Source: Patescibacteria group bacterium AH-259-L07 (GTDB taxonomy: Bacteria > Patescibacteriota > Patescibacteriia > UBA2591 > UBA6264). Taken from it: a stretch of 38,038 bases of DNA. The notes beneath the pieces are model-generated. The model ran no database searches and was not told the origin of the DNA. It was given only the letters and a program-made list of their open reading frames with translations. Position numbers and translations under genes: made by a program. Positions 3,641-38,038 of this stretch are shown in pieces (the stretch's first letter is position 1; each line of letters opens with the position of its first letter). The stretch is taken from NCBI GenBank assembly GCA_027718005.1, contig JALLOP010000002.1, positions 1-38,038 of the forward strand, given 5' to 3'.

Positions 3641-3754
3641 TGCTAAAAAATATAGATCTGTTAGTATAATGAGTAATGTCTATTTGTCATTCCGACCCTT
3701 TATCTTTGACTAAAGGTGAAGGGGAGGAATCTCATAATAAATTATTGCATATTT

Positions 3755-4411
3755 ATGCCAACTAAGAAATCAACAACGAAAAAAACAACAAAAGAGCCGG
3801 CAAAAAAGCCGGTAGCCAAGCGAGCGACCAAGAAGCCGGTAAAAGAGACTACCAAACCGGCGGCAAAGAAAACAGTAAAGAAGGTTGCAACAAAGAAATC
3901 TGTTGAAAAAGCTCCTGTTGAAAAAGCTCCTGCTAAAAAATTAGCAACCAAGCCAAGCATTCACCCTGTTAAATCCGACAAAGTCGGTGTGAAACAATTT
4001 AACAGGGTAAAAAAAGTTGAGAAGGAGGAAATCTGGGCGACGGGAAAGCGAAAATCTTCTATTGCACGCGTGCAGTTTTTTAGTTCTGGGAAAGGAGAAA
4101 TTTCTATTAATAAGAGGAGTATAAAAGATTATTTTCCTGTATTTGAGCTGCAAAAGTCGGTGACATCACCGCTTGTTTTATTAAAACAAGATAAAAAATT
4201 TACCTTTAGAATAAGGGTTCATGGCGGCGGCATACGAGGTCAGGCAGAGGCAGCACGGTTGGGCATCGCGCGTGCTTTATCAGAGCTTAACCCAGAATGG
4301 CGAAAGCCGCTTAAAAAGGCAGGCTTTTTAAAGCGCGACCCGCGAAAAAAAGAACGAAAAAAACCAGGCCTCAAACGCGCCCGCCGCGCCCCGCAGTGGG
4401 CGAAGAGGTAA
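3755..4411 (+). CDS. rpsI: 30S ribosomal protein S9 with a Lys/Ala/Pro-rich N-terminal extension of about 100 aa
   Basis: The C-terminal 125 aa carry the S9 signature (GKRKSSIARV...GGGIRGQAEAARLGIARAL...PRKKERKK). ATG at 3755; the listed GTG at 3716 is an alternative start. Confidence 0.9.
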   Translation: MPTKKSTTKKTTKEPAKKPVAKRATKKPVKETTKPAAKKTVKKVATKKSVEKAPVEKAPAKKLATKPSIHPVKSDKVGVKQFNRVKKVEKEEIWATGKRKSSIARVQFFSSGKGEISINKRSIKDYFPVFELQKSVTSPLVLLKQDKKFTFRIRVHGGGIRGQAEAARLGIARALSELNPEWRKPLKKAGFLKRDPRKKERKKPGLKRARRAPQWAKR

Positions 4412-4412
4412 A
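4394..4412. repeat. attL core: 19-bp direct repeat covering the rpsI stop codon
   Basis: CAGTGGGCGAAGAGGTAAA is identical to 37841..37859. Confidence 0.75.
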
Positions 4413-4447
4413 CTGTGTAAAACTTAAAAGTCCCAAAAATTAAAAGG

Positions 4448-4461
4448 AACTGTGGATAACT
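4448..4461 (+). promoter_or_regulatory. single copy of the AACTGTGGATAACT motif, which contains an exact DnaA-box 9-mer
   Basis: This 14-mer also occurs twice in the tandem array at 35940..35963. TGTGGATAA is the reverse complement of TTATCCACA. It is also part of the palindrome TGTGGA-TAAC-TCCACA. Confidence 0.5.
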
Positions 4462-4466
4462 CCACA

Positions 4467-4499
4467 GCCCGACCATATGTTGGTCGGGCTTTTTGTTTT
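4467..4499 (+). terminator. intrinsic terminator supplied by the phage arm downstream of rpsI
   Basis: GCCCGACC / GGTCGGGC form an 8-bp stem with a 7-nt loop, followed by TTTTTGTTTT. Confidence 0.7.
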
Positions 4500-4516: not shown

Positions 4517-4549
4517 GTAAGTTACAAAATTTCAATCGTAAGTTACAAA
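4517..4549. repeat. 12-bp direct repeat x2, each with an internal palindrome (operator or arm-site candidate)
   Basis: GTAAGTTACAAA occurs at 4517..4528 and 4538..4549, 21 bp apart. Each copy contains GTAA-G-TTAC. Confidence 0.5.
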
Positions 4550-6259: not shown

Positions 6260-6355
6260 ATGAGCTATCCTGGCGCCATTACGACCAAGATAAACCCATT
6301 ATCGTCCCTTTGTAATTATAACAAAAAAAATGAAAGATACCAATATAAAAAATGA
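6260..6355 (+). CDS. 31-aa micro-ORF with the strongest Shine-Dalgarno sequence seen in the early region
   Basis: AGGAGG (6246..6251) lies 8 nt before ATG 6260. The ORF overlaps the start of the 6330 gene in another frame and is below the ORF-track cutoff. Confidence 0.3.
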   Translation: MSYPGAITTKINPLSSLCNYNKKNERYQYKK

Positions 6356-7082
6356 GGCCTGGAAATATGTAGTTATTACTGATAGCACAACCGATCAGCG
6401 ATTACTAAAAAAGGGAAGGATAGGTGTTTATGCTTATACTCTTTACCATTTTTACGCTACTCAATCAGCGATTCAACAGACCAATAAAGTCTGGATTACT
6501 GATAGTTTTTGTCGGAAAGGACTTCACTGGGGGCGGAACAAGTTTGAGCAAGCCAAAAAGATACTTATAAAAGAAAAAATTATTGAAGAAATACAAAGAA
6601 AAGACGAAAAGGGACATTTTACTAAAAAATATATTATCATTCATTTTCTCTATAATCCCGACCGTTTGACTCCAAACCCACAGGCGGTGAAACCCGCAAG
6701 CGGAAAAGAAACGACAAATGCTTTAGATAAAAAGACAAATGCTTTAGATAAAAAGATAAATGCTTCTAAAGAGAAAATAATAAATTACACCTTAAAAGAT
6801 AGAGAATTAACTGATTTATTATATTCTCTTGTCCAGAAAAATTATTCGTGGGTTAAACAAAAGACCGAAAAGGCATTAGAAAAAAATTGTGAAGAAATGA
6901 ACCGCCTTAACAGGATAGACGGCTGGGATTATAAGCAGATTGAATTTGTTATTAGATGGTCGCAAAAAGATGATTTTTGGCGTCAGAATATCAGGTCGGT
7001 CTCAAAACTTCGCAAACAGTTTGAAAATTTAATTATCAGAATCAAAGAAAAATCTAATAAAAATAAAATAGCGATTATATGA
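6330..7082 (+). CDS. putative replication organiser or DNA-binding protein
   Basis: The N-terminus looks like a winged helix. The C-terminus has FWRQNIRSVSKLRKQF. The gene contains 21-bp tandem repeats. Functional call is weak. Confidence 0.5.
   Translation: MKDTNIKNEAWKYVVITDSTTDQRLLKKGRIGVYAYTLYHFYATQSAIQQTNKVWITDSFCRKGLHWGRNKFEQAKKILIKEKIIEEIQRKDEKGHFTKKYIIIHFLYNPDRLTPNPQAVKPASGKETTNALDKKTNALDKKINASKEKIINYTLKDRELTDLLYSLVQKNYSWVKQKTEKALEKNCEEMNRLNRIDGWDYKQIEFVIRWSQKDDFWRQNIRSVSKLRKQFENLIIRIKEKSNKNKIAII
6714..6771. repeat. 21-bp tandem repeat, about 2.5 copies (iteron-like)
   Basis: ACAAATGCTTTAGATAAAAAG occurs at 6714..6734 and 6735..6755, followed by a partial degenerate copy. The repeats encode TNALDKK repeats. 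Confidence 0.8.
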
Positions 7083-8325: not shown

Positions 8326-8757
8326 ATGAAAATATCTAACGAAGAAAAATCATATTTAGCTGGTTACATAGACGCCGATGGCAGTCTTGGAATTTATAAA
8401 AGTAATCATGGTTATTATAGTGTCATAGTTACAGCTTCAAGCACTGATTTAAGAGTTCTAAACCGTTTAAAATTTTTATATAAAGGTTCTGTAAGATGTG
8501 TAAGACACGGAAAAGAAAATTGGAAAGATGAATATAGATGGGTTATCGCCACAAAACAATCTGTAAAATTCTTAAATGATATTTATTCTTATTTGATATT
8601 AAAAAAAGATAGAGCAAAAGTTTTATTAGATTTTCAATCAACTATGAAAAGTGGTCAGTATCTTACTCCCGAAATTATAAAAATACGAGAAAAGTTATTG
8701 AGAAAAATAGCTACCCTTAACAAAAAAGGTGTTTCGCCCACTAAAAAACTAATTTAG
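8326..8757 (+). CDS. LAGLIDADG homing endonuclease (single-motif type)
   Basis: YLAGYIDADGSLGI motif near the N-terminus; 143 aa. Confidence 0.85.
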   Translation: MKISNEEKSYLAGYIDADGSLGIYKSNHGYYSVIVTASSTDLRVLNRLKFLYKGSVRCVRHGKENWKDEYRWVIATKQSVKFLNDIYSYLILKKDRAKVLLDFQSTMKSGQYLTPEIIKIREKLLRKIATLNKKGVSPTKKLI

Positions 8758-15324: not shown

Positions 15325-15762
15325 ATGGTTGAAACAATTTGTAAAAAATGTGGAAATAATTTTAAGACTTGGGTTTCTCATTTGAAATTAGGGAAGGGTA
15401 AATACTGTTCTTATAAATGTGCAAGTATAGGTCGAATTTTATCAGAAGAAACGAAAAGAAAGATTGGTGAAAAGTCGAAAGGAAATATGTATGCTTTTAA
15501 AAACGGAAGACAAAAAGCGGGTGGATATATTCGTTTGTATATGCCCGATCACCCTAATTGTAATAAAAAGAATTCTATACTTGAACATCGTTATATGGTC
15601 GAATGTATATTAGGCAGATTTCTTGAAAAAGAGGAGATAGTTCATCACATTGACGAAAAAAAAGACAATAATATTCCAGAAAATTTATATTTATTTTCTT
15701 CTCATTCTGAACATACAAAGTATCATCATAGTCCTTTTTTGCTGATGTCTAATCTAATTTAA
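15325..15762 (+). CDS. HNH homing endonuclease (family A) with a zinc finger and a NUMOD3-like motif
   Basis: CKKCG...KGKYCSYKC; SEETKRKIGEKSKG; C-terminal EHRYMVECILGRFLEKEEIVHHID..NNIPENLYLF..HTKYHH. Confidence 0.85.
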   Translation: MVETICKKCGNNFKTWVSHLKLGKGKYCSYKCASIGRILSEETKRKIGEKSKGNMYAFKNGRQKAGGYIRLYMPDHPNCNKKNSILEHRYMVECILGRFLEKEEIVHHIDEKKDNNIPENLYLFSSHSEHTKYHHSPFLLMSNLI

Positions 15763-18287: not shown

Positions 18288-18761
18288 ATGCCGACAGGTA
18301 TTTACCAACGAAAACCATTTACTCAGGAGCATAGAGAAAATTTAAGAAAAGCTCTTAAGGGTAAATCATTTCCGCATATGTATAAAGGGCATAAATTTTC
18401 TGAGATAACGAAAAAAAAGTTAAGACAATTAAAGTTAGGAAAGAAAAATCCGAACTGGAAAAAGGGAATTACCCCATTGAAGGTTTTATTTAGAAGTAGT
18501 TTTAAGTATCGTCAATGGCGGTTAAATGTTCTTATTAGGGATAATTTTACTTTTCAAGAATGTGAGCAGAAAGAAACAAATCTTATAGCTCATCATATTA
18601 AATCTTTTGATCAGATTATTGAAGAATATGATATTAAAACATTAGATGAATCATTAGAATGTGAAGAGCTTTGGGATATAAATAACGGTATAACATTTTG
18701 TAAAAATTGTCATAAAAAGGTTCATAAAAAGTTAATAATTTGTAATGCTCAATCCCTTTAA
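18288..18761 (+). CDS. HNH homing endonuclease (family C) with NUMOD3-like motifs
   Basis: FTQEHRENLRKALKG and SEITKKKLRQLKLG motifs. C-terminal YRQWRLNVLIRDNF...LIAHHI...NGITFCKNCHKKVH is a classic HNH core. Confidence 0.85.
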   Translation: MPTGIYQRKPFTQEHRENLRKALKGKSFPHMYKGHKFSEITKKKLRQLKLGKKNPNWKKGITPLKVLFRSSFKYRQWRLNVLIRDNFTFQECEQKETNLIAHHIKSFDQIIEEYDIKTLDESLECEELWDINNGITFCKNCHKKVHKKLIICNAQSL

Positions 18762-19639: not shown

Positions 19640-20110
19640 CTAATCTATTGAATCATATCTTATATGACACGCTTTACATAATCTAATCCAATCCTTTAGG
19701 TCCCTTAAATACTCATGGCTTTTGTTTGCCCAGTGAATTTTCCTGCCTGTTAATCCATCTGTTTTACAATGTTCACATTTGGTAGGTCTTCCTAATTTAT
19801 TATTTATCCAATGATGTAAAGCAGAATAACCAACATTATCACCTTTCCATAAAGGATGATTTTCATCTGTTTTAGATATACTTAACTTTATTTTATGATT
19901 TTCTGAAAATTCCATTCCTATATGAGATTCACTCATTTTATTTCTGGATTTTTCAGAATGTTTATATCCTAAATGACCTTTATCTCCTTTCTTAAATAAT
20001 GTTGATTTATCGCTACATTCTTTTGAGCAGAATTTACCTTTTCCAATTCTAATTCTACACGGATAAGTTTGAAAATCTTTATTACATTGTAAACATTTTA
20101 GAGTAATCAT
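19640..20110 (-). CDS. HNH homing endonuclease (family B) with a zinc finger and a NUMOD3-like motif
   Basis: CLQCN...KGKFCSKEC; SEKSRNKMSESHIG; C-terminal LWKGDNVGYSALHHW...CEHC...IHWANKSHEYLRDLKDWIRLCKACHIRYD. Opposite strand to its neighbours. Confidence 0.85.
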   Translation of the reverse strand: MITLKCLQCNKDFQTYPCRIRIGKGKFCSKECSDKSTLFKKGDKGHLGYKHSEKSRNKMSESHIGMEFSENHKIKLSISKTDENHPLWKGDNVGYSALHHWINNKLGRPTKCEHCKTDGLTGRKIHWANKSHEYLRDLKDWIRLCKACHIRYDSID

Positions 20111-23000: not shown

Positions 23001-23336
23001 ATGGATAAAAAAAGCATAGCCGCCGCCTTGTTGTTAGGCGCAGTTACTATTGGCGCTATAAATCTTAATATAAATATTGATTCTAAAAAGTTTTGGGAGA
23101 AAGCGATAAGAGGAGAGCTTTATACTACCTCTTTTAATCAGGAACAGTATAAGATTCTGAAGACAGACCTCATTGATCAAGTAAATCAAAAAAAGACTAT
23201 GACTTATCAGAGTTATAGTCTTTATTTACAAATGTTAAATAGAGAGATTAAGAAAAGCAGGGGATGGACAATCGGAAATGTGGATAATAAAAATTTGATT
23301 CCTAAGCTTAACTCTGAACTTGAGAAATCTCTGTAA
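23001..23336 (+). CDS. small protein with an N-terminal signal sequence or membrane anchor
   Basis: 111 aa with N-terminal SIAAALLLGAVTIGAI. Confidence 0.6.
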   Translation: MDKKSIAAALLLGAVTIGAINLNINIDSKKFWEKAIRGELYTTSFNQEQYKILKTDLIDQVNQKKTMTYQSYSLYLQMLNREIKKSRGWTIGNVDNKNLIPKLNSELEKSL

Positions 23337-23769
23337 GATTACTGACTAATTGGGGACTATTCTTTAAATTTTCATAATTCATATGTTCTGCTTGTGTATC
23401 AAATAAATATAAATTTTCAGGTAAGTTATTTTTCCTATCGCTATCAATATGATGTATTACTTCTTTAGATTCAAGAAATCTACCCAGCATACATTCAGTA
23501 GAATAACGATGTTCGTAAATATAATTATTTATAGCAGAGGGATGTTCAGGCATATTGAGTAAAATATATCCATTGCCAGTTTTTTTTCTTCCGCCTTTCC
23601 AGCTTGGATTATCTTCTCCAAATTTACGAACTCCATACATAGAATTTTTTTCTCCTTTTAATGATTCGCTTATCTTTCTTTTAGTTTCTTCAGAATGTTT
23701 AAAACCAGTTTTCGATTCACTCATCTTCTTTTTGGACTCTTCTGAATGTTTAAAACCTTTTTTGGGCAT
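23308..23769 (-). CDS. HNH homing endonuclease (family A) with NUMOD3-like motifs
   Basis: GFKHSEESKKKMSESKTGFKHSEETKRKISESLKG; C-terminal EHRYSTECMLGRFLESKEVIHHID..NNLPENLYLF. Opposite strand to its neighbours. Confidence 0.85.
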   Translation of the reverse strand: MPKKGFKHSEESKKKMSESKTGFKHSEETKRKISESLKGEKNSMYGVRKFGEDNPSWKGGRKKTGNGYILLNMPEHPSAINNYIYEHRYSTECMLGRFLESKEVIHHIDSDRKNNLPENLYLFDTQAEHMNYENLKNSPQLVSNLTEISQVQS

Positions 23770-27011: not shown

Positions 27012-27605
27012 TTGATTATGGTAAAAGGATTCAAACATTCAGATGAAACGAAAGAAAAACTAAGAAAAGCAAATTTAGGGAAAAAACATACCGAAGCAAC
27101 AAAGAGAAAAATGAGTGAAGCCCGTAGAGGAGAAAGACATCCTATGTTTGGTAAAAAATTCTCTGAAGAACATATAAGAAATTTAAGTAATGCTCTAAAA
27201 GGAAGAAAATTATCAAAAGAACATATAAAAAATGTGAGTATAGCTCTTAAAGGACATAAGGTTTCAGATGAAACTAAAAGAAAAATAAGTATAGCCAATA
27301 AAGGGAAATATATAGGAGTAGAAAATCCACGATGGAGGGACGGAAAATATAAAAATAATGGTTATCGGTATTTTCGTATGCCCGAACATCCATTTATTAA
27401 TATAAAAGGTTATATTGCAGAACATAGATATATGGCTGAATGTCTGCTCGGTCGGTTTCTTGAAAAAATTGAAGTAATACACCACATAGATGAAAACAAA
27501 GAAAATAATTTACCCGAAAACCTTTATCTTTTTTCTTCTGAATCTGGACATAGGAGACATCATAATCTTAAAAATAAACTTCAACTTACATCAAATCTAA
27601 TTTAA
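27012..27605 (+). CDS. HNH homing endonuclease (family A) with five NUMOD3-like repeats
   Basis: Repeats of the form S[DE]ETKxKxxxAxxG occur five times. C-terminal EHRYMAECLLGRFLEKIEVIHHID..NNLPENLYLF..H. Confidence 0.85.
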   Translation: MIMVKGFKHSDETKEKLRKANLGKKHTEATKRKMSEARRGERHPMFGKKFSEEHIRNLSNALKGRKLSKEHIKNVSIALKGHKVSDETKRKISIANKGKYIGVENPRWRDGKYKNNGYRYFRMPEHPFINIKGYIAEHRYMAECLLGRFLEKIEVIHHIDENKENNLPENLYLFSSESGHRRHHNLKNKLQLTSNLI

Positions 27606-32000: not shown

Positions 32001-33103
32001 ATTTAGCTTTTTTAACAGGCAAGGTGGCTTGGAATTTAGCAACCCAGCCATTGTCTTATATAATGAATGTTCCAATGGAAACTGGTATCAGAAATTCAAT
32101 TATAGCTATTGGCAAATCTTTCAATAAGTCATTAAGAGAATATGTTAAAATAAATTCAAATGTATTGGCTATCAAAAGCGGAGATATTAGGGCAATAGCC
32201 ATTGGAGAGGGAAGAAATATACAAAATAGAATTTATAAAACCAAGATAAATCACTACAACGATTTTATTTCTATGTTGGGATCGATAGAAGAAAGGGAAT
32301 TAACAAGAGCTTCCTTTATAGCTGGATTAGAACGAGCAAAACAATTAGGACTTAAGGGCGAAGATACTATATGGTTTGCTGATTTAACTGCCGCAAGAAC
32401 ACAATCAATGTATAATAAAGAAAATAGAGCATTGATATTAAATAGCGACATTGCAAGAACCATGTTTCCTTTTCAAAGTTTTTCTGTTGAAATGTTTAAT
32501 CATTTTAAAGAAATATCCACCAAGGCAAGTGGGGCAATGCGATTAACATATAGACAGAGATTTGGTAAATTATTTGGATTGTTAGTTGGGTTGTATTTAG
32601 CAAATTTATATTCGGAAGCATTAACGGGACGCAAAAAAACAACAATCGGCACTTTTGTTCCTTTCTTTGGGGCTTATGTTGATATGTTAATTGCCAAAGG
32701 GGCAGGCAAAGAATATTATGGTGGTAGAAGCCCTATAACTGTTATTCAAATATTACGAGATGGCTTAGATGGAGCGAGGGATTATATAGAGCATGGAAGT
32801 ATAAAGAGATTAAGAAAACTTGCTCTTAATTTCGGATTAGCACTTGGAGGAATTGGCGGAGGGGGACAAATAAACAATATCATAGATGGCATAATGGCTA
32901 ATATAAACGAAGATGTTAGAAATATCAAAGGAGATGTTATGTTTGAAGTAAAAGATGCCGAAAGTAAAATAAAAGCACCTATTTTTGGAATATGGGCTAC
33001 AAAAGAAGGCAAAGAATATTGGTTGCCAAAAGAAAAGAAAAAGAAGCCTGGTTTACCCAAATTACCAAGTCTTCCTAAATTACCTAAGTTACCTAATATT
33101 TAA
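29078..33103 (+). CDS. giant virion protein (tape-measure or ejection-protein-like) with an N-terminal HNH-type motif
   Basis: - 1341 aa.
- EVDHIIPLALGGTEDPHNLQAL near residue 85.
- A Pro-rich PxxP/KP tract.
- Duplicated PLA.E..KFKS.EEF motif.
- C-terminal hydrophobic helices and GGIGGGGQ. Confidence 0.75.
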   Translation: MALDLSAFGIKTKDPIEEKEPEIGKLNLSAFQIPQFLGGGEFRGRSTLQPSELEPFKTERGGLGTIEKREIRGGTFLETEKEVDHIIPLALGGTEDPHNLQALKNKKTITQTIFDAFTGKKRLPSDYKPKNRQEGKMVVEWKAINKYESGEISLAEARGAVINWEDPAIFLHEEREKLKPPIDIFDLFKKKEEPRFEIPITEEEKRRVVKPSLLPEPSIWKGNLPEFVKHSFKKQLQKERIYSWFIKTQPERNREIQTFAPLIFTYEGRNKLVEQGKITPEEAEIYSVIPEYLPVFTGMRQMGVKELTKMIGKASEYKSGQQFAEAIAKKFGTNVTEVNKGFAKFGMPNAQKLWEFATGRTTALTIPKRPIPGIKGKPPIITPPPAPVKPVLPVLPKIPVKPVSKITEKVKIPTIPSVGVKPEVKPVVPEEVRPLPKDIKRVEPEVRVTERELREVISKELRPLAEEVKKFKSPEEFIKKLKSIDDELVRLRSTIPTIEKRIQKLPKEDRFLAEVVAGEKLQPDIIRAFTEKFDVGEDALRRFFNLAKVIEFKPKVKPILKGLEPLAKEARKFKSSEEFVDFIEKSIVKRKIEVPVGMKGIPEVEREINRLQNIIRKNFVVDAKLSKSQLTDFYNQAVKEVKPIVKAKTKVKPKLKPEKVPIKAVSDFKNFINLKKIKTKDIPYKEMDIAERTTPKGNKLPAIRKTGFFATKDIEDAFVRDVYNQTLPPHLMALKQDGYKLGGKFGVIFRRIWKPTEKAIRNEKEFISSHSKLIRQLGKKHHIKPSEKNLKHLSDVIEGKVKATPKEEAYLKELRTVLDDLRNQANAVRRIMGKKEIGYIENYIPHIQKTALWSELLSNRATISDNLDFIIPNQAKNPFAYKRMFELLPDAERNLYILLDRYIRAISKDIYLAPAIENIKVYNSVLKNRELTNASRYWDEYIRTGLIGKQHKLDLSLSIGLKGRKVLQKWNNMVNLAFLTGKVAWNLATQPLSYIMNVPMETGIRNSIIAIGKSFNKSLREYVKINSNVLAIKSGDIRAIAIGEGRNIQNRIYKTKINHYNDFISMLGSIEERELTRASFIAGLERAKQLGLKGEDTIWFADLTAARTQSMYNKENRALILNSDIARTMFPFQSFSVEMFNHFKEISTKASGAMRLTYRQRFGKLFGLLVGLYLANLYSEALTGRKKTTIGTFVPFFGAYVDMLIAKGAGKEYYGGRSPITVIQILRDGLDGARDYIEHGSIKRLRKLALNFGLALGGIGGGGQINNIIDGIMANINEDVRNIKGDVMFEVKDAESKIKAPIFGIWATKEGKEYWLPKEKKKKPGLPKLPSLPKLPKLPNI

Positions 33104-33204
33104 AATGTTTCTTCCAAATAAATCCCAAATACCACACCCATTAAAATTAAACCTATTATAAGCATCCAATATACTTCTGCATCTTCTTTTAATATATTTT
33201 TCAT
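33100..33204 (-). CDS. 34-aa single-pass membrane peptide (unlisted ORF)
   Basis: MKNILKEDAEVYWMLIIGLILMGVVFGIYLEETF. Same strand as the 33333..34112 gene. Its stop overlaps the stop of the giant ORF. Confidence 0.3.
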   Translation of the reverse strand: MKNILKEDAEVYWMLIIGLILMGVVFGIYLEETF

Positions 33205-33332
33205 AAACTATTTCTTATGACTAAAAAAATTAAAACTCAAGGCAAAATTTACTTCGCTAACGGAAAATATTTTGGAGTTATCGGAAAAGTTAAACAAAAG
33301 AATAAAGATAAATATTCAAATTCTTAAAAAGG

Positions 33333-34112
33333 TTAAAATAGAGGATTATCAATCCATTGTAGCGTTTTGTTGATTTCCTCTAATTTACTATTTAATGTAT
33401 CCATTTGACTTCTACTAATTGATCTATCAAGTTGATCAAGGTAATCATAAATAGATGGATCAATAGGGGCAACAGAATACTCTAATTTAAGTTTTAGCTT
33501 AGTAAGTTCTAATCGGGCTGATTCGGCCATTTCTTTATAAGCGAGCGCGGCCTCAAGGGCTTTCACATAATCTTCTAATACTTCGCTTATCGCTTTCTCA
33601 AATTTTATATCCACATCACTTTTATTATAACTATTTTGAGCTAATGTTTCATACGCTTCCTGCCATTCTGTAACATTGTCTATACAAGTATTCCGGTCCT
33701 GCAGAATTACTAAATGTTCATTTTTAAAGAAATTTAAATCTTTCTGACATTGCTGATACCCTGGATTATCCTTATAAACAATCTTTTCAACCGGTATTTC
33801 TTTGATAATTTCTTTTGGGACTTCCTTAATAATTTCCTTGACGACAATTTTTTCAACAGGGACTTCCTTAATTATTATTTCGGGTTCGCAAATTTTTGTA
33901 GAGGAAGATTCAGAGGAAGATTCATAGGAAGATTTTTTTGGTGATGTTTCAATTTGAGACAATTCTTTTTTAAACACTTGACCAACTGAAGATTTTATAT
34001 TTGACCACGAAAACCAATCAAAAAAACCAGCATTAGCCGGTTGAATATTAATAAAAGATAATAATAAAAGAAGAGATATAACGATTATTAAATTCTTTTT
34101 ACCCCACATCAT
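33333..34112 (-). CDS. secreted or membrane-anchored repeat protein (moron candidate)
   Basis: N-terminal signal/anchor LIIVISLLLLLSFINIQPANA. KEVPVEKIVVKEIIKEVPKEIIKEIPVEKIV repeats. Coiled-coil C-terminus. Opposite strand with its own promoter. Confidence 0.7.
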   Translation of the reverse strand: MMWGKKNLIIVISLLLLLSFINIQPANAGFFDWFSWSNIKSSVGQVFKKELSQIETSPKKSSYESSSESSSTKICEPEIIIKEVPVEKIVVKEIIKEVPKEIIKEIPVEKIVYKDNPGYQQCQKDLNFFKNEHLVILQDRNTCIDNVTEWQEAYETLAQNSYNKSDVDIKFEKAISEVLEDYVKALEAALAYKEMAESARLELTKLKLKLEYSVAPIDPSIYDYLDQLDRSISRSQMDTLNSKLEEINKTLQWIDNPLF

Positions 34113-34118
34113 ATTTTA

Positions 34119-34146
34119 ATTATAACAGATATTAGAAAAAAGTCAA
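34119..34146 (-). promoter_or_regulatory. sigma70-like promoter giving a leaderless or near-leaderless mRNA for the 34112 gene
   Basis: On the minus strand: TTGACT (34146..34141), a 16-nt spacer, then TATAAT (34124..34119). Only 6 nt separate the -10 from the ATG. Confidence 0.5.
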
Positions 34147-34147
34147 T

Positions 34148-34375
34148 ATGCCAGATAAAATTTCACCAAAAAATAATGAACAAGATAGACAATTAGCCAA
34201 AGTTGAACAAAGAGTTGAAGATTGGTTTGTTTTGTTTGATAAATTTATAATTAACGATTTTCATTCTCTTAAAAAAAGAGTAGAAAAGATTGATATTCGC
34301 GTTTGGGGGATTCTGATTACTCTTATAACAATTCTTTTAGGAGTGATTGGTATTTTAGTAAAGTTGTTTAAATAG
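34148..34375 (+). CDS. tail-anchored small membrane protein, XhlA-like or holin-associated (putative)
   Basis: 75 aa with an N-terminal coiled coil and a single C-terminal TM (VWGILITLITILLGVIGILV). It lies directly upstream of the putative endolysin. Confidence 0.5.
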   Translation: MPDKISPKNNEQDRQLAKVEQRVEDWFVLFDKFIINDFHSLKKRVEKIDIRVWGILITLITILLGVIGILVKLFK

Positions 34376-34448
34376 AGATGTATGTCATATCAACTCTTTT
34401 ATAAAAATGCACCACAAGTGATTCTGGTGCGTCACAAACACAAAAAAT

Positions 34449-35393
34449 ATGCCTAAACATCGTAAATATCCTAAAAACTTCGGTTTGATCATAGAAGAGC
34501 CGCGTCCGTCTGATTGGCAATTTGGCGTTAGCGCAATAGATGAGACGCCGATTAATCCTTCAGGCGATTGGTCTAACTTTAGACCAGCCATAGAATATCA
34601 GCATTATCCTAACTTTGATACAATGGGGTGCGTTTCATTCTCGGCTCTTAACTGCTTGGAAACATTACACAATTTTAAATATGGAAAAATAATAAACCGC
34701 TCTGATAGATTTACTGTTGTAGCTTCGGAAACCACTATTAAAGGGAACACCTTTGTTAAAGTAGGGGATAGTATTAGGAAATTACACGGAACGATTGATC
34801 AAGGCAGGTGGACTTTTACCGGCACTACGCGAGAGCAGTATTTTGGAATTATCCCACAAGTATTATTTGATGAAGGATTAGATTGGCTCAACTTTTACAA
34901 CGTAAATTATGAATGGGCTCATCCGCCCTTTGCCGCACAGTTAATGCAAGCCCTGAAAACCGCTCCGATACAAGTTACCGTTTATGGATGGGAGAATCCT
35001 GTTAATGGGATTTACCAGCGGACAGAGAGAATAAATAATCACGCGGTAATGTTGTTTAATTATAAGGAGGGAGAATGGTGGGAGATACTGGATCATTATG
35101 ATATCGATGTTAAGAGACTGGCGTGGAATTTTCATTTTGGTTATGCCTTTAGATATAATATAAATAAAATAAAACTTATGAAATTAGTAAGAGTTCCAAA
35201 ATTTTCAACAGTTTATTTAGTTGTAAATAATATAGCTACGCCTATCGGAAATGAAAAAATTTATCAAAAACATTTTAACGATCCTGAATGGAAATTGATC
35301 GAAATTATATCAAAAGAAGATTTGACTAAACATAAAATAGTTGATAAAATGATAGATAAGGAATTAGTTAAAAATGTAATTGATAAAATATAA
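34449..35393 (+). CDS. papain-fold cysteine peptidase, putative endolysin
   Basis: TMGCVSFSALN (Cys nucleophile context), then NHAVMLFNY (His), then WWEILDHYD, in the Cys..His..Asp/Asn order of papain-like enzymes. Confidence 0.55.
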   Translation: MPKHRKYPKNFGLIIEEPRPSDWQFGVSAIDETPINPSGDWSNFRPAIEYQHYPNFDTMGCVSFSALNCLETLHNFKYGKIINRSDRFTVVASETTIKGNTFVKVGDSIRKLHGTIDQGRWTFTGTTREQYFGIIPQVLFDEGLDWLNFYNVNYEWAHPPFAAQLMQALKTAPIQVTVYGWENPVNGIYQRTERINNHAVMLFNYKEGEWWEILDHYDIDVKRLAWNFHFGYAFRYNINKIKLMKLVRVPKFSTVYLVVNNIATPIGNEKIYQKHFNDPEWKLIEIISKEDLTKHKIVDKMIDKELVKNVIDKI

Positions 35394-35396
35394 TTT

Positions 35397-35861
35397 ATGA
35401 TAAAAGGAAGTAAACATTCAGAAGAAATCAAAAGAAAAATAAGCAATTCTCTTAAAGGAAATAAAAACCCTTTTTGGGGCAAACATCATACAGAGGAATC
35501 TAAGATAAAGATGAGCAAAGCGCATACAGGAAAAAAATTATCTGAAGAGCATAGAATAAATATGAGCAAAGCCCTTAAGGGCAGAAAAAAATCAGAAGAA
35601 CATAAGAGAAATATAAGCAAAGCACAATTAGGAGAAAAAAATCATTTATGGAAAGGAGATAAGGTAGGTTATCGCGCTCTCCATAGATGGGTTGAAAAAT
35701 GGAAGGGTAAACCAACTCAATGTGAACATTGTAAAGAAGATGGATTAATTGATAAACAAATAAATTGGGCAAACAAATCAGGAAACTATTTAAGGGACTT
35801 AAGAGATTGGATTAGATTATGTGTTAAATGTCATAGAGAATATGACAAAGGATCAATATAA
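35397..35861 (+). CDS. HNH homing endonuclease (family B) with NUMOD3-like repeats
   Basis: SEEIKRKISNSLKG, TEESKIKMSKAHTG, SEEHRINMSKALKG and SEEHKRNISKAQLG motifs. C-terminal LWKGDKVGYRALHRW...CEHC...INWANKSGNYLRDLRDWIRLCVKCHREYD. Confidence 0.85.
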   Translation: MIKGSKHSEEIKRKISNSLKGNKNPFWGKHHTEESKIKMSKAHTGKKLSEEHRINMSKALKGRKKSEEHKRNISKAQLGEKNHLWKGDKVGYRALHRWVEKWKGKPTQCEHCKEDGLIDKQINWANKSGNYLRDLRDWIRLCVKCHREYDKGSI

Positions 35862-35933
35862 GGAAAGAGTCAAGAATGGTTGGGGTTTATAATTAGGAAT
35901 TGATTTGCTATTGAAAGGTCATTGAATTGATCC

Positions 35934-35963
35934 GTGGATAACTGTGGATAACTGTGGATAACT
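35934..35963 (+). repeat. three tandem 10-bp repeats, GTGGATAACT, containing DnaA-box 9-mers
   Basis: CGTGGATAA at 35933..35941, and TGTGGATAA at 35943..35951 and 35953..35961. Spacing is exactly 10 bp. A T-run and AT-rich DNA follow. Confidence 0.85.
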
Positions 35964-35976
35964 TTTTTTGATATTG

Positions 35977-36024
35977 TGATATAATAAAATACGCTATTGA
36001 CAAATTTTCAAGATTTTGTATAAT
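35977..36024 (+). promoter_or_regulatory. tandem promoters: an extended -10 and a near-consensus -35/-10
   Basis: TGATATAAT at 35977..35985. TTGACA (35997..36002), a 16-nt spacer, then TATAAT (36019..36024). Confidence 0.55.
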
Positions 36025-36030
36025 AGTATT

Positions 36031-36135
36031 ATATATGACTCACCATCAGCAAACAACAACAAGTAATATACTTTTATTAAAAAATAAAAGAACCCGCTAC
36101 AATTATATTACATTGTAGGGATTCTTTTGTTTTTT
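36031..36135 (+). ncRNA. short promoter-to-terminator transcript (sRNA or 27-codon micro-ORF)
   Basis: The predicted +1 (about 36031) is 4 nt before ATG 36035. The only ORF, MTHHQQTTTSNILLLKNKRTRYNYITL, runs into the terminator hairpin. Confidence 0.35.
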
Positions 36136-36276
36136 AATTTAATGGACCCTTGGGGGGTCAAACCCCTCGCGCGCTAACACAGATGGTTATAAATCATCTT
36201 TCACCTGATCGGGTGAGCCAGGGCCCTTATGTAGGGTCCCTTAAAACAATCAAACAATCATTTTTAAGGGTCCATT
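36080..36276 (-). ncRNA. candidate structured non-coding RNA of about 200 nt (family unknown)
   Basis: - A consensus promoter lies immediately upstream on the minus strand.
- An 18-bp perfect inverted repeat (36134..36151 / 36266..36283) encloses four GC-rich hairpins and a tandem 8-mer.
- The RNA ends at the bidirectional terminator. Confidence 0.5.
36090..36135. terminator. bidirectional intrinsic terminator shared by convergent short transcripts
   Basis: The stem pairs CTACAAT with ATTGTAG and extends through GAACCC / GGGATTC. TTTTGTTTTTT follows on the + strand and TTTTATTTTTT on the - strand. Confidence 0.6.
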
Positions 36277-36282
36277 AAATTA

Positions 36283-36311
36283 ATTATAATATTCCAGAAA
36301 ATTTATGTCAA
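36283..36311 (-). promoter_or_regulatory. perfect consensus sigma70 promoter on the minus strand
   Basis: On the minus strand: TTGACA (36311..36306), a 17-nt spacer, then TATAAT (36288..36283). The predicted +1 is near 36276. Confidence 0.6.
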
Positions 36312-36419
36312 GGTCTGAAAGGCAATAAATTTTACACATTTTATCAACATTCTAATATGTCATTTTATTCTTGTCATTCCTGACAAGTTTTTTATTTTAT
36401 AGGAGTGGACAAATAGGGG

Positions 36420-36447
36420 TTGACAAAATTATTATATCTGTTACTAT
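36420..36447 (+). promoter_or_regulatory. promoter for the small HTH gene, overlapped by a GTTAC-N7-GTAAC inverted repeat
   Basis: TTGACA (36420..36425), a 16-nt spacer, then TACTAT (36442..36447). GTTAC at 36440..36444 and GTAAC at 36452..36456. Confidence 0.45.
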
Positions 36448-36489
36448 TTATGTAACACCATTATTCTAATATTCTATTTTGTTACATTT

Positions 36490-36672
36490 ATGAAACGGGT
36501 ATTAAAAATTGTTAAACAATACCGCAAAATAGGGGATTCTCTTTTAGAAGCATATATAAAAGACCGGGCAGAGGAGGGGCACTCTCTTGCTGATATTAAA
36601 GAGGAGTTGAAAAAAGCAAAGATCGATTTTTCACGAACCCATATTTGGAGGTTTGTTAATAAAAAGAAATAA
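36490..36672 (+). CDS. small HTH protein (excisionase or regulator candidate)
   Basis: 60 aa, basic, with an HTH-like HSLADIKEELKKAKIDFSRTHIWRFV. It lies directly upstream of the integrase. Confidence 0.55.
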   Translation: MKRVLKIVKQYRKIGDSLLEAYIKDRAEEGHSLADIKEELKKAKIDFSRTHIWRFVNKKK

Positions 36673-36678
36673 AAAAGC

Positions 36679-36715
36679 ACCCGCATTTTCAGCGGGTCTG
36701 GGAGGAAAGTCCCAG
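36679..36715 (+). terminator. two adjacent hairpins after the HTH gene (weak terminator candidate)
   Basis: ACCCGC / GCGGGT at 36679..36697 and CTGGGA / TCCCAG at 36698..36715. There is no clear T-run on the + strand. Confidence 0.3.
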
Positions 36716-36805
36716 CATTTCAGTTTGCAAAAGCTCTTGCTACTGAATTGGCTCAATATAATTATAGCACGCCTTAAATAAGTGTAAAGGCGTTGGAAAG
36801 GTGCT

Positions 36806-37684
36806 ATGCGAATTGAGGATAAATTTTTAGATTATCTGAGTTATCTCAGGAGGACTGGGTTAACTGAGAAAACAGTAACCGAACATCGGCGATTTTTATT
36901 TGGCTCAATTTCTCATTCAGTCTCAAGGACTAAAATTAAAAAATTAAAACTAACCGATATCGCTAAAACTATCGAGGCAGGAAAGGTGCACGGGGAATAC
37001 GGCAGTCAACGATCGGTTGTTACTTTACGGCGTTATTTAAAGTATTTACAAGACACCGGCGTTAGGATCCCCTTTGACTGGCGCGATATCAAGGTGCCGC
37101 AAGTCCCGGAGAAAGAAAAAATTTCTTTAACAAAAGAGGAGCTGGAAAAGATTTTTAAAAATATAATGACATCATCGGCCAAACCCCAATGTCGTCTCCG
37201 TATGCGCACCTTGTTTGAGGTGTTGTTTTCTACGGGGATGAGAATATCAGAGGCACTTTCCTTGACAAGGGAACAGTTTAAGGAAATAAAAAAAACTAAG
37301 GAAACAATTATCAGGGGCAAGGGTGGCGATGAGCGTATAGTTTATTTTACTGATCGGGCAATCGAGTGGATTGAAAGAAATTTAAAAGCGAGAAATGATG
37401 ACTGTCCGGCGCTTTTTATTAATACACTCGGCAGGCCCCTAATAATGGTAACGGCAAAAAGCGACTTGCTTCGTCACCGGGACGAGTGGGGCATACCAAA
37501 GCGCGTGCATTTTCATATTGTTAGACGGACGCTGGCAACACTCTTGATAGAAGGCGGGGCGGATATGAAGTCAACACAAACTATTCTTGGACATCGATCT
37601 CCTCGCACAACATTAAGATATTATGTAACGGTAAATCGCAAAAGAGCGAAGCAAGTTCATCAGAGAATATTGGCAACAATTTGA
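36806..37684 (+). CDS. int: tyrosine recombinase / phage integrase (Xer-like, 292 aa)
   Basis: TGMRISEAL (catalytic Arg box), HFHIVRRTLATLL and LGHRSPRTTLRYY give the R..H..R..H..Y catalytic pattern. The gene lies 157 bp from attR. Confidence 0.9.
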   Translation: MRIEDKFLDYLSYLRRTGLTEKTVTEHRRFLFGSISHSVSRTKIKKLKLTDIAKTIEAGKVHGEYGSQRSVVTLRRYLKYLQDTGVRIPFDWRDIKVPQVPEKEKISLTKEELEKIFKNIMTSSAKPQCRLRMRTLFEVLFSTGMRISEALSLTREQFKEIKKTKETIIRGKGGDERIVYFTDRAIEWIERNLKARNDDCPALFINTLGRPLIMVTAKSDLLRHRDEWGIPKRVHFHIVRRTLATLLIEGGADMKSTQTILGHRSPRTTLRYYVTVNRKRAKQVHQRILATI

Positions 37685-37705
37685 GTTGCTTGATCGATTA
37701 AAGTA

Positions 37706-37714
37706 TGGTATAAT
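37706..37714 (+). promoter_or_regulatory. outward-facing extended -10 promoter at the prophage right end
   Basis: TGGTATAAT (TGnTATAAT) lies just after the integrase stop and points across attR into host DNA. Confidence 0.4.
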
Positions 37715-37840
37715 ATAGATAGTTAATAATTATTGCGGAGGATTCTGGAATTTTAAAAATAGTAAAACCTTAAAATTTGGCTTATTTAGGTTCAAATTAA
37801 GCATATGGTCGGTTTTGGGACTCTCACAAGTTTAGCTCCT

Positions 37841-37859
37841 CAGTGGGCGAAGAGGTAAA
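37841..37859. repeat. attR core: 19-bp direct repeat
   Basis: CAGTGGGCGAAGAGGTAAA is identical to 4394..4412. Confidence 0.75.
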
Positions 37860-37865
37860 ATAAAG

Positions 37866-37890
37866 TGCCCACTACGATGTGTAGTGGGCA
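37866..37890 (+). terminator. hairpin downstream of attR (probable native rpsI 3' stem-loop)
   Basis: TGCCCACTAC / GTAGTGGGCA form a 10-bp stem with loop GATGT. No T-run follows. Confidence 0.4.
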
Positions 37891-38038
37891 AATAGGGTTG
37901 GGGCAGCAGACCACTTGAGCAAGGTGGGTCCTCCATTTACATATTTAAACATAAACTTGAAATAAAGGCTTGTCTTAAAGTTTGGATATAAATATTATTC
38001 ACTTCCAACTATAAACATTTCTTAAAAAACCGCTAAGT

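Follow-up and report, generated by a model that had tools for sequence, protein, structure and literature searches.

Three head-to-tail copies of a DnaA-box-like 9-mer lie at the junction of the late (lysis) genes with the lysogeny module in a prophage carried by Patescibacteria group bacterium AH-259-L07, within the 38,038-nucleotide stretch of DNA analysed here (the window). Judged from sequence, the ligand of these boxes is probably DnaA. We tentatively favour promoter-proximal control by this protein, at a probability of roughly 0.45: the array would be a DnaA-responsive operator at the late/lysogeny boundary, and a second box would stand before the early genes.

The three-box array and its setting

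The prophage (33.4 kb) sits in the 3′ end of rpsI and is bounded by a 19-bp exact repeat, CAGTGGGCGAAGAGGTAAA. Its gene order, all on the + strand, is early genes, packaging, head and tail, then lysis; in the circular phage the lysis genes are followed by the array, promoters and small RNAs, a 60-aa gene, int, attP, the box at 4451 and the early genes. The principal features are:

4394..4412, + strand: attL core, 19 bp, in the last codons of rpsI (ribosomal protein S9, Pfam)
4448..4461, + strand: extended box copy AACTGTGGATAACT, 35 bp inside the phage from attL
6330–7082: DnaD-like/O-like replisome organiser (PHROGs DnaD-like, O-like and replisome-organiser families, E = 6e-15 to 2e-4)
6705..6780, + strand: 21-bp iterons AAAAGACAAATGCTTTAGATA, 2.7–3.7 copies, within the DnaD/O-like gene
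23279..23287, + strand: isolated exact TGTGGATAA within coding sequence (..GNVDNK..), without the C...CT flanks of the other copies
35933..35963, + strand: array of three head-to-tail candidate DnaA boxes, CGTGGATAA, TGTGGATAA and TGTGGATAA, with a 10-bp period
35964..35970, + strand: T7 run directly 3′ of the array, read from the sequence
35977..35985, + strand: putative promoter P1, extended −10 TGATATAAT, likewise read from the sequence
35997..36024, + strand: promoter P2, 12/12 sigma-70-type consensus, TTGACA-16-TATAAT
36031..36135, + strand: predicted transcript of ~105 nt from P1/P2, fold z −6.1
36806..37684, + strand: tyrosine integrase, 292 aa, PF00589 at residues 108–278
37841..37859, + strand: attR core, the same 19-mer CAGTGGGCGAAGAGGTAAA as attL

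The sequence at 35933–35963 is cCGTGGATAACTGTGGATAACTGTGGATAACTttttttt, that is, cCGTGGATAACTGTGGATAACTGTGGATAACT, and then the T7 run. Tandem Repeats Finder reported 35934–35963 as 3.0 copies of period 10 with 100% matches, bearing out the head-to-tail triplication of GTGGATAACT described in the initial annotation. On the − strand the array consists of AG-TTATCCACA-G units overlapping by 2 nt, and its period is 10 bp because this 12-mer overlaps itself by two bases. Set against the DnaA-box 9-mer (TTATCCACA/TTWTNCACA), the array holds one 8/9 copy, CGTGGATAA at 35933, and two exact copies at 35943 and 35953, and the box at 4451 is also exact. The recurrence of a 14-mer of the array near attL was confirmed too: AACTGTGGATAACT is common to the array and 4448–4461. 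Gaps between the 9-mers of the array are 1 bp. None of 147 tandem pairs sampled from IMG/VR had such a gap, all 147 being spaced by 2–3 bp; at 1-bp spacing the three sites may not all be filled together.

Exact TGTGGATAA occurs four times in the whole window, always on the + strand (4451, 23279, 35943 and 35953), compared with 0.43 expected and a maximum of 3 in 100 dinucleotide shuffles of the window. Sites with at most one mismatch number 19 against 11.4 expected, CGTGGATAA at 35933 included. Two points of the initial annotation need correcting: the three array copies are a single repeat event, not three independent matches, and the copy at 23279, which is coding and lacks the flanks and was therefore treated as chance, probably is so.

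The array adjoins a T-run, A+T-rich DNA and two promoters, as had been annotated: the T7 run is followed by the extended −10 of P1 and the 12/12 promoter P2, and the DNA flanking the array on the T-run side is 82% A+T. Box 3 of the array occupies the −35 position of P1. The distance from the array end to the −35 of P2 is 35 bp, longer than the 0–25 bp typical of relatives. The P1/P2 transcript ends at a strong bidirectional terminator hairpin (~36076–36135) and its sole ORF, of 27 codons, lacks an obvious ribosome-binding site. That the apparent product of these promoters is a ~105-nt RNA ending at a strong terminator weakens the promoter-control reading.

The 4451 box is embedded in a hairpin, CTGTGG-ATAACT-CCACAG (4447–4470), just ahead of a terminator at 4466–4490, and precedes the early genes, the replication organiser among these. 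By inserting in the last S9 codons, the prophage brings this terminator as a replacement for that of rpsI. Host S9 itself (3716–4411) carries a Lys/Ala/Pro-rich N-terminal extension of ~105 aa before the Pfam S9 domain (residues 110–231).

Several other elements lie around the array and the att sites. A candidate structured ncRNA gene of ~190 nt (36085–36311, − strand) is convergent to the P1/P2 RNA, and the terminator hairpin is common to both. It has a 12/12 promoter (TTGACA-17-TATAAT, 36311–36283) and a closing stem of 13–18 bp (36137–36152/36267–36284) round a G+C-rich five-hairpin multiloop, ends at the bidirectional terminator, and folds with an MFE of −75.6 kcal/mol (z = −7.1); alternatively, a small mobile element with inverted repeats could account for the region. 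Rfam searches of the entire window, with permissive thresholds on 35850–36500, returned tRNA-Met only; the ncRNA region and the 60-aa protein had no homologues in 114 collected loci, and a scan of IMG/VR for the stem pattern found no copy. Just past the int stop lies a possible extended −10 promoter (37686–37714; TTGCTT-17-TATAAT, preceded by TGG), which in the circular phage would read across attP to the 4451 box and early genes and in the prophage into the host flank. Two candidate phage operators were also noted: a 14-bp tandem repeat, ATAGGrGTkGACAA, at 36399–36427, overlapping the promoter of the 60-aa gene, and two copies of GTAAGTTACAAA with a 21-bp period at 4517–4549, ahead of the early genes.

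The 33-kb prophage contains at least six paralogous NUMOD3/HNH homing-endonuclease genes at dispersed positions (15325–15762, 18288–18761, 19640–20110 (−), 23308–23769 (−), 27012–27605 and 35397–35861; also 8326–8757), and homing-endonuclease repeats make up most of the repeat-finder output. A LAGLIDADG endonuclease adjoins the phage tRNA-Met (8087–8157). The NUMOD3-HNH gene at 35397–35861 immediately precedes the array. Boxes also follow the HNH genes at 23308 and in L004, but a specific tie between box and HNH genes was dropped: orientations differ, the 23279 copy is coding, and both box and genes favour intergenic gaps. A terminator hairpin was ruled out, as direct repeats form none, and so was a pac/cos site, the terminase genes being 24 kb away.

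Boxes in related and unrelated phages

We aligned 40 integrase homologues and collected loci from genomes, IMG/VR, metagenomes and the contigs of the three closest homologues, yielding a sample of 79 non-redundant loci encoding integrase relatives (36–64% identity). Relatives of the integrase were found in Patescibacteria/CPR genomes, in Paceibacterota, Taylorbacteria and Moraniibacteriota. Exact boxes were about ten times denser in int-proximal DNA (1.2 kb upstream of the int start plus 500 bp downstream of its stop) than elsewhere in these loci, at 2.27 versus 0.24 per 10 kb, and TTWTNCACA sites occurred at 4.06 versus 0.57 per 10 kb, with chance at about 0.6. Markov-1 simulations of the same regions gave 0.77 exact boxes and 11.6 TTWTNCACA sites, compared with 24 and 53 observed; at least one TTWTNCACA site was int-proximal in 33 of the 79 loci. 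Boxes in these relatives are mostly single and form two clusters, 0–500 bp after the int stop and 1,000–2,000 bp before it. The window counterparts on the circular map are the 4451 copy, at about +214, and the array, at about −1730. The annotated arrangement, in which box copies flank int/attP in the circular phage, thus recurs in relatives, whose boxes cluster upstream of int and just downstream.

Variation among these boxes matches selective constraint on the DnaA consensus, the core being conserved. Near int, single mismatches gather at positions 3 (A>T) and 5, where TTWTNCACA is degenerate, and variants fitting TTWTNCACA made up 19 of 57 near int versus 14 of 105 elsewhere (Fisher P = 0.004). 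The flank consensus, A-G-box-G in 30–31 of 43, equals the unit of the window array.

Boxes in relatives also sit in a particular relation to promoters. A promoter of at least 10/12 had its −35 starting 0–25 bp downstream of 16 of the 53 int-proximal boxes (30%), versus 97 of 2,880 random positions of int-proximal regions (3.4%), and almost no int-proximal box lay inside or downstream of a promoter. This placement (examples are L021, L032, L078, L079, L106 and L026) is the geometry of transcription-factor sites, and it is on account of the excess over random positions that promoter-proximal control is preferred here. In L078, L086 and L087, several boxes lie between the late-operon terminator and the next promoter. 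In the window, too, a box lies within ~100 bp upstream of, or overlaps, a promoter, an adjacency kept in relatives. Of the three roles offered in the initial annotation, DnaA-sensing control of the adjacent promoters is accordingly the best supported, given boxes at the same two module boundaries and this promoter spacing. Adjacency is suggestive rather than decisive, since intergenic regions hold promoters and any other type of site.

Phages that have only the lysin in common with the window show exact boxes at the same boundary too, directly past the lysis genes. In one of these, L109, whose lysin is 61% identical, two exact boxes are followed by a T-run, a TTTACA-N16-TATAAT promoter (TGtGATATAAT) and a small HTH gene, and a near-identical GTGATATAATAA matching the extended −10 of the window comes after the boxes; in L112–114 an exact box lies 8 bp past the lysin stop. 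Searches for a closer relative (above 64% integrase or 61% lysin identity) found none. The integrase had no exact record and no close viral match, the lysin had no close viral match, blastn of 33100–38038 against GenBank phages gave no match, and a sequencing-run look-up found the window sequence in no run.

Arrays of the form C-TGTGGATAA-CT also occur in unrelated phage contigs of 30–65% G+C, and the exact 20-mer is present in three unrelated phage contigs. One specificity across hosts of such different composition points to a universal host ligand, most simply DnaA. At least 119 IMG/VR viral contigs (L115–L233) hold exact TGTGGATAA pairs 2–3 bp apart, where a rough estimate predicts about 5. 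The arrays listed have up to 7 boxes each, with C-box-CT flanks, and 100 of the 117 distinct arrays among the matches listed lie outside long ORFs. A census around these 117 arrays (145 flanking ORFs; PHROGs and Pfam) revealed no dominant family, and their neighbours lean to DNA metabolism (primase/helicase, Pol A, ParB and ligase). Sigma-70 promoters showed 3–5-fold enrichment at the listed arrays, in a test made insensitive by the diversity of hosts. A tblastn search with an approximate B. subtilis DnaA sequence as query found no dnaA beside the collected box arrays, which argues that, within the collected stretches, the arrays are not mis-binned oriC fragments. Neither the window nor any collected locus contains a host oriC or dnaA. 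A literature search on Patescibacteria DnaA boxes found no paper.

Some of these phages share further context. One IMG/VR sub-family has ATAATCAGTAAsAT..CTGTGGATAAACCTGTGGATAACTAT in common. The unrelated high-G+C phages L001 (1932–1964), L002 (8428–8460) and L003 (682–725) carry the same box pair with a 10-bp period. In L001 and L002 the pair has a repressor-like gene on one side and leftward early genes, SSB among them, on the other; in L003 two degenerate repeats TGTGGAGCGAC come after the pair, along with a promoter-like site that precedes the portal gene.

Origin, sink and other readings

The initial annotation also proposed a DnaA-dependent phage origin. On this reading, the array would be an origin or an auxiliary origin element at which a phage without its own helicase, primase or polymerase starts replication by a route through DnaA and the phage DnaD. 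The annotation had recognised none of those three enzymes, and none was found in the phage; it had missed the DnaD-like/O-like organiser at 6330–7082. That the sole replication protein is DnaD-like can be counted for an origin, as Firmicutes DnaD acts downstream of DnaA. Three same-face consensus boxes adjoining a T-run and 82% A+T DNA would also suit one, active promoters alongside could supply transcriptional activation, and the lean of neighbours of the listed IMG/VR arrays to DNA metabolism points the same way. The organiser gene, however, contains its own iterons at 6705–6780, followed by 77% A+T DNA. Iterons inside the initiator gene are the classical lambda/SPP1 origin layout, and these are likely to be the phage replication origin and a better candidate than the array, which lies ~4.2 kb away on the circular map.

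The array also departs from known DnaA-dependent origins. P1/F-type plasmid origins resemble the window in that a mobile element has its own initiator and tandem host DnaA boxes, but their boxes abut the Rep iterons; the window iterons are kilobases from both box sites, 2.25 kb from the nearest box (4451) and ~4.2 kb from the array. The basal unwinding system (BUS) of oriC comprises a DnaA-box pair, a GC spacer, DnaA-trios and an AT-rich DUE (PMC8287927, PMC6669920), with tandem boxes at most 3 bp apart (PMC8287927). The array shares its tandem same-orientation consensus boxes, here with 1-bp gaps, and its proximity to A+T-rich DNA. With the side and orientation of DnaA-trios relative to the box taken from published work (PMC8235120, PMC8287927), we looked for at least three trios (5′-YTR/NTN-3′) within 16 bp downstream of a box. 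On the canonical 3′ side of the TTATCCACA strand no run exceeded one at any spacer of 0–16. The flank richer in A+T lies opposite (82% A+T, versus 68% on the canonical side), and neither array flank ranks with the 12 most A+T-rich 60-mers in the window. Boxes in relatives, moreover, are mostly single and abut a −35. With an initiator and iterons of the phage's own, and neither trios nor the A+T-richer flank on the canonical side, the proposed DnaA-dependent origin is weakened and we consider it unlikely.

Quite improbable is capture of DnaA with no local output, either by a datA-like sink or by tethering of phage DNA to membrane-associated DnaA. As a sink, an amplifying phage genome would draw DnaA from the host origin and from DnaA-repressed genes. 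Such readings fit the wide occurrence of tandem consensus boxes in unrelated phage contigs, and arrays that are mostly intergenic with no consistent neighbour gene and no dnaA nearby. A tether has been proposed for the T5 injection-stop region (bioRxiv 10.1101/866236). T5-like phages resemble the window in having precisely arranged, conserved consensus boxes in a non-coding, non-origin region; in T5 these are box pairs 3 bp apart in inverted repeats of the terminal repeat, whereas the three boxes of the window array are direct repeats with 1-bp gaps and adjoin promoters (T5: bioRxiv 10.1101/866236). The DnaA-box cluster datA of E. coli and those of B. subtilis likewise gather high-affinity boxes outside the origin, but they are chromosomal, with at least five dispersed boxes, and datA has an IHF site. 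Three or four boxes per genome would make a small sink unless copy number were high, and neither sink nor tether explains the strong positional conservation at both boundaries of the lysogeny module or the adjacency to −35 elements in this family.

The third annotated role, in which a phage protein would recognise the copies as operators or arm sites and the likeness to DnaA boxes would be coincidental, is disfavoured and carries little probability; candidates for that protein would be the 60-aa HTH protein, an excisionase and the integrase. The copies do flank int/attP, one of them 35 bp from the att core, and tandem direct repeats are a usual form of arm sites and operators. Yet the motif does not vary across relatives with integrases of only 36–64% identity, its extended form C-TGTGGATAA-CT recurs in unrelated phages, and its variation follows the DnaA consensus. 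Pfam detected only the catalytic domain (PF00589) in the integrase and no arm-binding domain, and 1.9 kb separate the array from the att core. The 60-aa protein lacks a homologue in the collected loci, and the repeats at 36399–36427 and 4517–4549 look more operator-like. Least probable of all is a recent slippage expansion of one box, with functionless extra copies and the remaining boxes due to chance: array units are 100% identical, no close relative was found to show the triple form conserved, and the 23279 copy looks like chance, but at least one box at this boundary is kept in relatives and multi-box arrays recur independently in other phages.

Host DnaA and the phage switch region

Under promoter-proximal control, the array would present three high-affinity sites to DnaA, the host initiator and transcription factor, and their occupancy would track the amount and nucleotide state of DnaA, and so the replication and growth state of the host. 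Occupancy would raise or lower transcription from the boundary promoters, or block read-through from the late operon, which would link switch-region expression in the phage to host physiology. Spaced at 10 bp, the three boxes fall on the same face of the helix; slippage of a single extended box is the probable source of the triplication, which would boost occupancy and cooperativity.

Precedents for such control are known. Lambda, like the prophage in the window, is temperate, has an O-type initiator with iterons in its gene, and uses host DnaA at a promoter, not at the origin: DnaA stimulates pR, which provides transcriptional activation of ori-lambda. The lambda boxes are weak and downstream of pR, whereas those of the window are perfect, tandem and upstream of promoters. 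Among bacterial genes, E. coli dnaA, nrdAB and mioC have DnaA-regulated promoters. Further DnaA-regulated promoters with boxes are those of E. coli uvrB (PMC6015884) and P. aeruginosa gidA (PMC13438810). As in the window, the consensus 9-mers of bacterial DnaA-regulated promoters lie just upstream of, or overlap, a sigma-70 promoter; the window differs in being a prophage of a Patescibacteria host, in its three close-packed copies with a 10-bp period and in its short, predicted non-coding transcript, and its regulation is putative.

Promoters, plasmid origins and a few phages are already known to carry DnaA boxes, and if only the ordinary reading is true the array adds one more DnaA-regulated promoter. 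What is new is the Patescibacteria host group, the placement kept on both sides of the lysogeny module, and the unusually tight 10-bp packing. A wider reading is doubtful but follows the same pattern of boxes bracketing the lysogeny module and lying at boundary-promoter −35 elements family-wide: in Patescibacteria phages, host DnaA might be an input to the switch region, so that early and lysogenic transcription is gated by host replication state, replacing or adding to a phage repressor, and close-packed arrays might be a general phage device to capture the initiator. To our knowledge, such arrays have not been catalogued as a general capture device. The tandem boxes in many unrelated phage contigs suggest that phage use of DnaA is broader than a few textbook cases, and their wide occurrence merits a survey of its own. 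Patescibacteria are almost uncultured, and we know of nothing on the choice between lysogeny and growth in their phages. A universal, easily spotted host-factor site at conserved positions would give a concrete handle on that choice, and box positions offer a means of annotating the switch regions of metagenomic phage genomes.
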